Assembly: GCA_947629265.1 (NCBI GenBank)
Contig: CANRCZ010000001.1
Location: 37,344 to 101,343 of the forward strand
Length of the DNA: 64,000 nucleotides
Direction: 5' to 3'
From: an uncultured Bacilli bacterium
GTDB lineage: Bacteria; Bacillota_I; Bacilli_A; RF39; UBA660
Below, piece by piece: positions 17,472 through 18,546 of this stretch. The notes beneath the pieces are model-generated. The model was not told the origin of the DNA. It worked only from the letters and a program-made list of their open reading frames with translations, and made no database searches. A program made the translations under genes and the position numbers. The stretch's first letter is position 1; every line of letters starts with the position of its first letter.

Positions 17472-18546
17472 ATGAAAGAAAAAATAAGGTTCGGGGGGGG
17501 GGTATTTAATAACGATTTTAATACTATTAGTAGTAACTAATGGTATTACATATGGCGCTAGTCAATATGATAGTAAGAGTGTTAGTTATACCAAAAGTGA
17601 TGGAACAACTGTTACCGTTTCACAGGCCCTAGATGATTTGATTGTTAAATCAAGTAAATCAGGTGGTAACTTTAATATTGAGCTAGCCGAAAGAACCATA
17701 GGAGTAAATTATACAGAAAGCACAGCAGATTATGAGAAAATAATCGATGATTTATTAGGAAAAATAATATCAACAATGGGAGCAACTGCAAAAACAGCAG
17801 AATTGACCTCATTAAAAAATGCAACTTTAACATGGACAAGTCAAGATACTGGAACTGTAAGTATTAGCGGAACAACCGCCAAAGGTGTTAAAGTAGGAAA
17901 GACAACATTAGTAGGATCAGGTGCTGGAAAGCAAGTAACAGTACCAATAAATGTAATATCTGGAGTATATTTGGCAGATAGTGCAATAGCTGTTGGAGAT
18001 TACGTAGCGTATGATGCAGGAACTTGGAGTTCAACTGTTGGTAAACCAACAAGTCATGGAAACTTTGGAGGATATACAAGTGGTAAAAGTAAAAATGAAA
18101 GTGTGTCTTGTGATAATTCATCTACAACATTAAAAGGTTGGAGAGTACTTTCAATAGATAAAAGTAGTAAAAAAGTAACCATAGTGCATGCCGGTCAACC
18201 CGAATGTTACTATCACGGAACTAATCCAAGTGATAGTATATCTAAATTGAATACTAGGGCATATGAACAATATAAAAACACATTTGCAGAGTCAGGACGA
18301 TCAATATCCAAAACCGATGTTGATGCTCTTGGTTCAACTGATACATTACGAAAAACAAGCACATATTACTGGCTGGCTACTGCATTCGGCAGCACTTACT
18401 TGTATTACGTGGGCACTGACGGTAGCATCGGCAGCTACTACAATAGCGTGTATGGTTTCCGCCCGGTGATAGTTCTAAAATCTAGTGTCCTTACTACAGG
18501 TAAAGGAACAGATAGTTATGGAAATTCTGCTTGGAAATTAGCATAG
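17472..18546 (+). CDS. DGR target surface protein (signal peptide, Big_2-like middle domain, C-terminal CLec-like VR domain). It is frameshifted in this sequence at a G10 tract, so a phase-variable gene or an OFF state.
   Basis: ATG at 17472 with a strong RBS reads MKEKIRFGGGGI* and stops. Removing one G restores MKEKIRFGGGYLITILILLVVTNGITYGASQ... in frame with ORF 17638-18546. That N-terminus matches the intact paralog at 22951-23778. The 3' end carries the VR. Confidence 0.75.
17493..17502 (+). repeat. G10 homopolymer tract in signal-peptide codons (candidate slipped-strand phase-variation switch)
   Basis: Ten consecutive G in an AT-rich genome. The frame is restored by -1 G. Confidence 0.7.
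18366..18467 (+). repeat. DGR variable repeat (VR) at the 3' end of the target gene
   Basis: 102 bp aligned to the TR at 19464-19565 with 15 mismatches, all at TR adenines. It ends in the GC-rich 14-mer GGTTTCCGCCCGGT, an IMH-like element. Confidence 0.85.

Follow-up and report, generated by a model that had tools for sequence, protein, structure and literature searches.

A G-tract leader cassette that may gate a retroelement-diversified surface protein gene in an uncultured gut Bacilli bacterium

Introduction

The closest described relatives of the system considered here were repeat tracts located in the leaders of surface adhesin genes. In the opa family of Neisseria gonorrhoeae, CTCTT repeats were located in the leader. 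Gonococcal pilC had a poly-G tract in the signal-peptide coding region (PMC13017665, citing Jonsson et al. 1992). In the sortase-dependent pilus genes bbr_0113 and bbr_1889 of Bifidobacterium breve UCC2003, a G-tract separated the Sec signal from the body; the reference genome carried an out-of-frame length, and enrichment of in-frame lengths was observed in the mouse gut (PMC9187656). In Campylobacter jejuni, the modal length of the G tracts was G9, G8 tracts tended to gain a base and G11 tracts tended to lose one (PMC3401435). Here we describe a run of ten G's in the leader of the target gene of a diversity-generating retroelement (DGR) in an uncultured Bacilli bacterium (assembly GCA_947629265.1, contig CANRCZ010000001.1, positions 37,344 to 101,343). 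The whole stretch of 64,000 nucleotides is referred to as the window, and all coordinates below are counted from its first letter.

DGRs have usually been discussed as systems that vary recognition, and the question of when, or whether, the varied protein is displayed has received little attention. The gene in question, designated P1 (ATG at 17472), was the DGR target. Two of its paralogs in the window are designated P2 (a second polyG gene, ATG at 31697) and P3 (22951-23778). The features of P1, P2 and the DGR given below were located on the plus strand.

Results

A G10 tract put the P1 leader out of frame with its body

The P1 gene was preceded by a sigma-70-like promoter site, TTGAAA-17-TATAAT (17410-17438, 11 of 12 matches), which was the top-scoring site of this kind within 17200-19900 and whose hexamers aligned with the equivalent hexamers of other polyG leaders. 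A purine-rich Shine-Dalgarno (SD)-like stretch, AAAGGAAGGAAGAG (17452-17465), ended 6 nucleotides (nt) before the start codon (17472-17474), and a GGAG or GGAA element was kept at this position in every leader that was aligned. The start codon opened the basic n-region of a signal peptide, MKEKIRF (17472-17492). The G10 homopolymer (17493-17502) was located 21 nt after the ATG, that is seven codons into the signal peptide, and would sit between its charged n-region and its hydrophobic core. All of these elements, namely the promoter, the ribosome binding site, the ATG and the ten G's, had been reported in an initial annotation of this DNA and were found in the sequence.

As written, the ATG frame gave a product of 22 codons (MKEKIRFGGGVFNNDFNTISSN followed by a stop) that ended at a TAA at 17538-17540. 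The initial annotation had placed the stop after 12 codons, which was incorrect since the 12-codon product (MKEKIRFGGGGI followed by a stop) was that of G11. In an in-silico series from G6 to G13, P1 was in frame at G6, G9 and G12. The earlier claim that the loss of one G restored a protein of 357 amino acids (aa) was reproduced, with the open reading frame (ORF) ending at 18546, and G12 gave 358 aa. The body ORF (17503-18546) encoded a hydrophobic signal/anchor segment, a helical linker, a Big_2-like immunoglobulin (Ig) domain and a C-terminal C-type-lectin-like domain, and the AlphaFold model of the repaired protein was confident from residue 70 on.

P1 was the target of a complete DGR

The initial annotation had also named P1 as a DGR target, and this assignment was well founded. 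Namely, a variable region (VR) of 100 nt inside P1 (18368-18467) was 86% identical to a template region (TR) at 19466-19565, all 14 of the 14 VR/TR mismatches fell at TR adenines, and this adenine-only mutagenesis had introduced no stops into P1. The VR encoded part of the C-terminal lectin-like fold, and the genes of a reverse transcriptase (19861-20754; RVT_1, E = 2e-15) and of the accessory protein bAvd (19041-19415; PF22296, E = 7e-10) were adjacent. Directly past the P1 stop there was a GC-rich inverted repeat, CCGCCC...GGGCGG (18565-18597), whose position suggested that it was a candidate DGR target-recognition hairpin. The repeat was not present after the non-targeted paralogs, that is after P2, P3 and a protein of 1084 aa described below.

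The G tracts were strongly non-random

The window had a G+C content of 27.9%, and the only runs of five or more G's or C's in its 64 kb were a G5 at 1900, the G10 of P1 at 17493 and a G9 at 31718, the latter belonging to P2. The pattern GGGGGGGGG, with nine G's, had 3 matches in the window versus 0.01 expected from shuffles. Moreover, GGG was among the rarest sense codons in the 38 long ORFs (16,196 codons), where it was found 1.05 times per 1000 codons and accounted for only 17 of the 754 Gly codons (2.3%). This was in agreement with the earlier statement that a G10 was improbable by chance in a genome so rich in AT. Neither an in-frame GGGGGG nor a Gly-Gly-Gly tripeptide occurred in the same 16,196 codons of the 38 ORFs (zero cases each). 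Taken together with the rarity of GGG, this indicated that the tract was selected as DNA and not as protein.

The body ORFs located downstream of such tracts were constrained. When six of them were read from the codon after the run, no stops were found over 252-354 codons, and pairwise comparisons gave synonymous divergences (dS) of 0.7-1.4 with ratios of nonsynonymous to synonymous divergence (dN/dS) of 0.31-0.51. Purifying selection would be unexpected in genes that are never expressed and, therefore, some route from the ATG frame to the body frame must operate. Judging from these substitution patterns, the polyG genes are at times expressed and have not entered decay.

A proposed slipped-strand switch resting in the OFF state

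We proposed that the G10 of P1 was a slipped-strand contingency tract that rests in the OFF state and is layered on a DGR target, and we gave this reading a probability of roughly 0.55. In this case, a ribosome on the G10 message would start at the well-served ATG and end after 22 codons, so that no exported protein would be made. The loss of one G (to G9) or the gain of two (to G12) during replication would then produce a secreted or anchored protein of 357 or 358 aa, consisting of an Ig-like domain and a C-type-lectin-like tip diversified by the DGR. The tract would be a part of a leader cassette that is portable, consists of a promoter, an SD, the ATG, about six basic codons and the G run, and heads many paralogs in the present lineage of uncultured gut Bacilli with low GC. 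Each copy would be OFF in the bulk population, with a minority of cells expressing it. Diversification of the VR could continue while P1 is silent since DGR mutagenesis and retrohoming act on DNA. We infer that cells of the population differ in tract length, that either selection or mutational bias has made OFF the resting state and that the P1 product is exposed on the surface.

The leader cassette was shared by many paralogs

The true counterpart of the P1 leader within the window was the leader of P2, with 84% identity over 128 nt including the promoter. P2 had a promoter-like site TTTACA-17-TAAAAT with a TG before the -10 hexamer (31635-31663), a start codon with the leader MKEKIRL (31697-31717) and a G9 tract (31718-31726). 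As written, P2 was also out of frame, with a product of 22 codons, and the in-silico tract series put it in frame at G8 (364 aa) or G11 (365 aa). Past the tract, P2 had the same hydrophobic core as P1, and its body ORF extended over 31727-32792. The initial annotation had described the N-terminus of P3 as near-identical to that of P1, which did not hold: P3, located on the minus strand, had a different and ordinary signal peptide (MKLINKLLSQKKFIVGSICGAVLATS) and resembled P1 only from ITYG onward, with about 57% identity.

A protein search produced a family of 72 members, all from NCBI metagenome-assembled genomes (MAGs) or ENA assemblies. Tract DNA was read from short ENA contigs and one GTDB representative, that is from consensus sequences only. 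The polyG cassette was found on at least nine gene copies from at least six assemblies and at least three projects. One contig (L001) was a second assembly of the P1 locus, identical over 1608 bases including the G10. The loci L017, L018, L024, L025, L029 and L004 came from five ENA assemblies and one other MAG. In seven distinct leaders (two in L017, those of L018, L024, L025 and L029, and also P2), the run was a G9 followed by TTAT and was one base too long. The more distant L004 had a G10 in a prepilin-type gene whose frame was restored by adding one base or removing two. Thus, an offset of one extra base was present in 8 of the 9 cassettes read, with L004 as the exception. Between the G10-TAT of P1 and the G9-TTAT of the other leaders, the difference was a T-to-G substitution and not an indel, and therefore there was no net indel among the eight closely related cassettes.

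In the leader alignment, the cassette had a constant order: -35, -10, a TGTAAAATAA motif, SD, ATG, six basic codons and the G run. It headed Sec-type and type IV prepilin-type (MKEKIRLGGGYSTLKNKG/FTLIELL) members of the family alike. The paralogous leaders started with MKEKIRL, MKEKIKL or MIRKIRR, and their changes were synonymous or conservative, which argued that the ATG frame was the translated one. The paralogs lacking a G run had ordinary signal peptides of the MK... type, so that GGG was evidently not required for export. That an out-of-frame leader of this kind recurred suggested an expression gate that is built in, and not an error.

Gene calls within the family reflected the interrupted frame. 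Among the 72 members, 12 calls started inside the run (MGGGY...), 19 (MVTNG...) and 4 (MTSDG...) started after it, one was the shortened P1 call (MIVKSS...), and about 24 members had ordinary MK... signal peptides with no G run. The in-frame leader-GGGY form was found in none of the members, that is in 0 of the 36 polyG-type gene calls. We rejected the start class (MGGGY, MVTNG or MTSDG) as a readout of tract length because NCBI and ENA called the same genes differently.

Several other observations concerned the spread of the family. The polyG-leader paralogs at L017:1387-3668 and L025:157-1499 adjoined genes of the insertion sequence (IS) type (PDDEXK_2, HTH_Tnp_2 and an rve integrase), and in L017 an IS was located between two polyG leaders. 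These hints pointed to mobile elements that spread or rearrange the family or its leader cassette. Four prepilin-type members (P0061, P0063, P0067 and P0072) had called starts inside the hydrophobic pilin helix (e.g., MIELLAVIVV... or MVLAIIALIAAP...); they may be further tract-interrupted leaders or genes cut at contig ends. Among distant loci, a scan of genome contigs gave 15, with the tract in L004 only, and a scan of Joint Genome Institute metagenomes gave 5, with no tract. No DGR adjoining the polyG gene was found within the L004 locus. A scan of viral contigs with the family profile produced no relative, and therefore the element was not phage-borne in the viral collection scanned; a variable-length DNA pattern for the leader had no match in viral contigs either. 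An in-frame G9 encoding ...DIRLGGGYLSANG... was observed on the minus strand of a phage tail-fibre-like ORF (L030:385-405; IMG/VR UViG_3300031555_003589). This ORF was probably unrelated to the family, yet it was another long G run in a gene of the receptor-binding type.

Sequencing error, decay and internal initiation

An out-of-frame homopolymer could be explained in a simpler way if the true tract was G9 and the extra G came from a homopolymer error in sequencing or assembly, or if P1 was a dead pseudogene with a functionless run. Insertions are rare in sequencing-by-synthesis reads, and an error of this kind must have inserted precisely one base at each of at least nine tracts in at least six assemblies and at least three projects. 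The G10 was present in both assemblies of the P1 locus, and L001 matched at all 1608 bases; at the same time, the L001 assembly was covered only 2x, and the two assemblies may go back to related samples. Databases can indeed contain wrong homopolymer lengths, and the B. breve reference differed from the main population lengths (PMC9187656). On the other hand, about 300 A or T runs of 6-9 in the window left long ORFs unbroken. Decay was difficult to reconcile with intact body ORFs at a dN/dS of 0.3-0.5 and a dS of about 1, with adenine-only mutagenesis of the VR that had created no stops, or with the conserved promoter, SD and ATG. We therefore considered an artefact or a pseudogene to be highly improbable.

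The tract could also be bypassed by internal initiation. A TTG or GTG, made up of the two bases before the run and its first G (cTTG GGG GGG GGT TAT), could open the body frame of the G9-TTAT leaders and produce a protein MGGGY..., which is the start given in many automatic gene calls; the upstream ATG would then belong to a short overlapping upstream ORF. All seven of these leaders had such an in-frame codon at the start of the run (GTG in L018 and TTG in the others), and for the prepilin-type members the resulting MGGGYSTLKNKG/FTLIELL could still work as a prepilin leader. However, this was impossible for P1, where the codon was TCG and a TAA was located two codons upstream in the body frame, and L004 had no in-frame start either. 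The TTG had no SD (the nearest AAGG ended 1 nt before it), whereas the conserved SD was located 6-8 nt before the ATG. Additionally, a protein starting with MGGGYLLIIL... would have no basic n-region, which the ATG-frame leader supplies and which was conserved at the protein level. Internal initiation was considered very unlikely.

Switching versus fixed recoding

The initial annotation had interpreted the tract as an ON/OFF slipped-strand switch. The anatomy agreed with this interpretation (a non-random tract, a one-base toggle, constrained ORFs and a DGR target), but no variation in length was seen. The initial annotation had also suggested that the tract be compared across strains. At the consensus level, the P1 locus was G10 in both assemblies with no polymorphism, the seven related P2-type leaders were all G9-TTAT, and there was no in-frame homologue. 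Several of these facts weighed against a switch. There was no net indel across the eight cassettes, although their bodies were near synonymous saturation, and more scatter would be expected from a tract that slips freely. If every frame were equally probable, the chance of finding none of the 36 polyG-type gene calls with an in-frame leader would be about (2/3)^36 = 5e-7, a figure that treats as independent copies that were not so, given their common cassette, possible gene conversion and several samples coming from one study.

The same uniformity led us to consider fixed recoding, where the run that is one base too long would itself be the functional state and the same MKEKIR(F/L)GGGY... protein would be made at a set low efficiency. 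This could happen in two ways. Either ribosomes stall on the three consecutive, very rare GGG codons and the P-site tRNA-Gly re-pairs in the +1 frame (GGG to GGG), or RNA polymerase slips within the run, so that some of the transcripts carry one G less. The tract would then be a translational throttle and not a heritable switch. The one-base offset in 8 of the 9 cassettes, which P1 kept as G10-TAT despite its changed run length, was in line with this idea, and so were the missing in-frame forms among the 36 polyG-type homologues and the purifying selection on bodies that were always out of frame in assemblies. Furthermore, GGG was rare, and on a G run a tRNA can re-pair perfectly whatever the frame; such a run is also similar to an internal SD. 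High levels of +1 frameshifting are known from tandem rare codons, such as AGG-AGG in Escherichia coli.

However, L004 needed a different correction (one base more or two fewer, rather than one fewer), and therefore a single fixed shift direction did not fit all copies. There was no stop or classical +1 stimulator beside the run, and the zero-frame stop was located at a variable distance of 2-12 codons. The only candidate for a conserved frameshift-stimulating RNA structure was a 13-bp hairpin in the coding sequence of the h-region (17519-17548, fold z = -4.15), which started 16 nt past the P1 tract and included the out-of-frame TAA. Five Sec-type leaders retained it, covariation among them was nearly absent (1 compensatory pair of 28), and the prepilin-type leaders had no counterpart; since the hairpin was also too far from the run, it was not counted as a stimulator. 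Elongation-phase slippage of bacterial RNA polymerase was documented for A/T runs (PMC1088944), and this run consisted of G's. Finally, a G9-G10 run of DNA would be expected to be unstable in replication regardless of any recoding.

A uniform OFF state fitted an OFF-resting switch and a fixed recoding site equally well. Considering all of these points, we regarded fixed recoding as possible but unlikely. It was similarly doubtful that a run of the rarest Gly codon of this genome diverts a fixed share of the ribosomes (or of the RNA polymerases) into another frame and so throttles a whole family of DGR-diversified and pilin-like surface proteins; if it does, the throttled level may depend on the tRNA or growth state. 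A hybrid, with DNA slippage and recoding both acting, may also exist. Under the slipped-strand switch, a mutational attractor of the C. jejuni type at G9 would explain the uniform G9. Combined with a cassette in which G9 is OFF, such an attractor would produce the uniform picture, and selection against bulk display would add to it.

The DGR locus and the other paralogs

A further ORF of 148 aa with MutS domain I only (18617-19063; PF01624, E = 4e-10) was located between P1 and the bAvd gene, overlapping the latter by 23 nt. It looked like a MutS-like DGR accessory gene with a mismatch-binding domain. The VR was identical in the two assemblies of the P1 locus. No convincing terminator was found between P1, the MutS-like ORF, avd, TR and the reverse transcriptase gene, all of which were arranged head to tail, and P1 may be co-transcribed with avd-TR-RT. 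If so, polarity in the OFF state, caused by the early stop in P1, might lower the expression of the downstream DGR genes. The initial annotation had regarded switching as independent of DGR diversification; by this reasoning, the two layers need not be fully independent.

The P2 body contained a VR-like segment with non-A differences from the TR and had no GC-rich hairpin after it, and therefore P2 was not targeted at present by this TR. For the same two reasons, P3 and the C-terminus of the 1084-aa protein were also rejected as additional targets. The latter protein (8518-11772) was of the prepilin type, with a prepilin N-methylation motif, fn3 and Big_2 domains and no G tract. Its end (10879-11769) was a fourth copy of the lectin-like C-terminal module and was 44% identical to P1.

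The P1 locus was chromosomal, and no phage genes were found nearby. Directly upstream of P1 there was an AddA/AddB-like pair, namely a UvrD-type helicase and a PD-(D/E)XK nuclease (14263-17397 and 11889-14279). The reverse transcriptase gene was directly followed by a gene for an AAA_21/SMC_N-like ATPase of 383 aa (20918-22069), of the AbiEii/OLD-like kind, and then by a gene for a protein with a glucosaminidase domain (22179-22916).

Discussion

If the gate is real, two levels of variation are stacked in P1: a binding tip changed by a retroelement and a heritable ON/OFF (or throttled) display of this tip. Diversification of the tip could then proceed while P1 is silent, and only a minority of cells would put the result to the test. 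The presence of the cassette on many Sec-type and prepilin-type paralogs of uncultured gut Bacilli with small genomes points to contingency-locus biology in commensals known from metagenomes only. The tract also matters in practice. These genes are all cut short by automatic annotation (the NCBI call for P1 was a shortened form of 302 aa, versus 357 aa when repaired) and, therefore, surveys of DGR targets will misread their N-termini and cellular localisation.

A polyG gate on a presumably active DGR target appeared to be new. Judging from titles and abstracts, we found no paper on a simple-sequence-repeat gate of a DGR target gene and no report of this combination. In other respects, the DGR resembled those with variable proteins of the Mtd and TvpA class or Legionella LdtA. 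It shared with them a C-terminal VR in a lectin-like fold, adenine-only differences, a cassette of Avd and reverse transcriptase, and a hairpin after the VR. The MutS-domain-I accessory ORF was a less common addition.

Programmed +1 frameshifting (prfB, or AGG-AGG) offered a second comparison. The conserved out-of-frame layout was similar, and so were a slippery site where re-pairing can be perfect, the slow rare codons at this site and the presence of a G-rich sequence that looks like an SD. In contrast to the known cases, the run had no adjacent stop or defined stimulator, L004 needed the opposite shift, and the layout was known from sequence alone.

The tracts of C. jejuni were similar in that G8-G11 runs were confined to surface-structure genes of an AT-rich genome (PMC3401435). 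Many of those loci were ON, and their lengths differed among strains and passages, whereas every copy read here was OFF, and no variation in length was seen. The gonococcal pilC and opa genes likewise had a repeat within the signal-peptide coding sequence of surface adhesins and were switched by frameshifts. As in the case of opa, the genes described here formed a multigene family with most copies out of frame at any time. The gonococcus differed in being a Gram-negative pathogen where switching was demonstrated experimentally and lengths varied among strains. Moreover, its antigenic variation came from pilE/pilS recombination rather than from a retroelement that works on the switched gene itself.

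B. breve provided a closely matching case, since it is a Gram-positive gut commensal where a G run (10-12) was located between the Sec signal and the pilin or adhesin body. On the B. breve side, a minority of cells was in frame, the tract was conserved across related species and the reference genome was out of frame. The differences were that length heterogeneity was measured there, while the tracts here were known from consensus sequences; that Bifidobacterium is GC-rich, which makes a G run far less anomalous than at 28% GC; and that those pilus genes had no DGR. Additionally, the tract described here was located in a leader cassette common to many paralogs, including the prepilin-type ones. 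We provisionally placed the mechanism in the class of homopolymer contingency loci, closest to the B. breve pilus genes and pilC. To this class, it would add a new host, an uncultured low-GC gut Bacilli bacterium, and a portable leader cassette on a large family of paralogs with every copy OFF.

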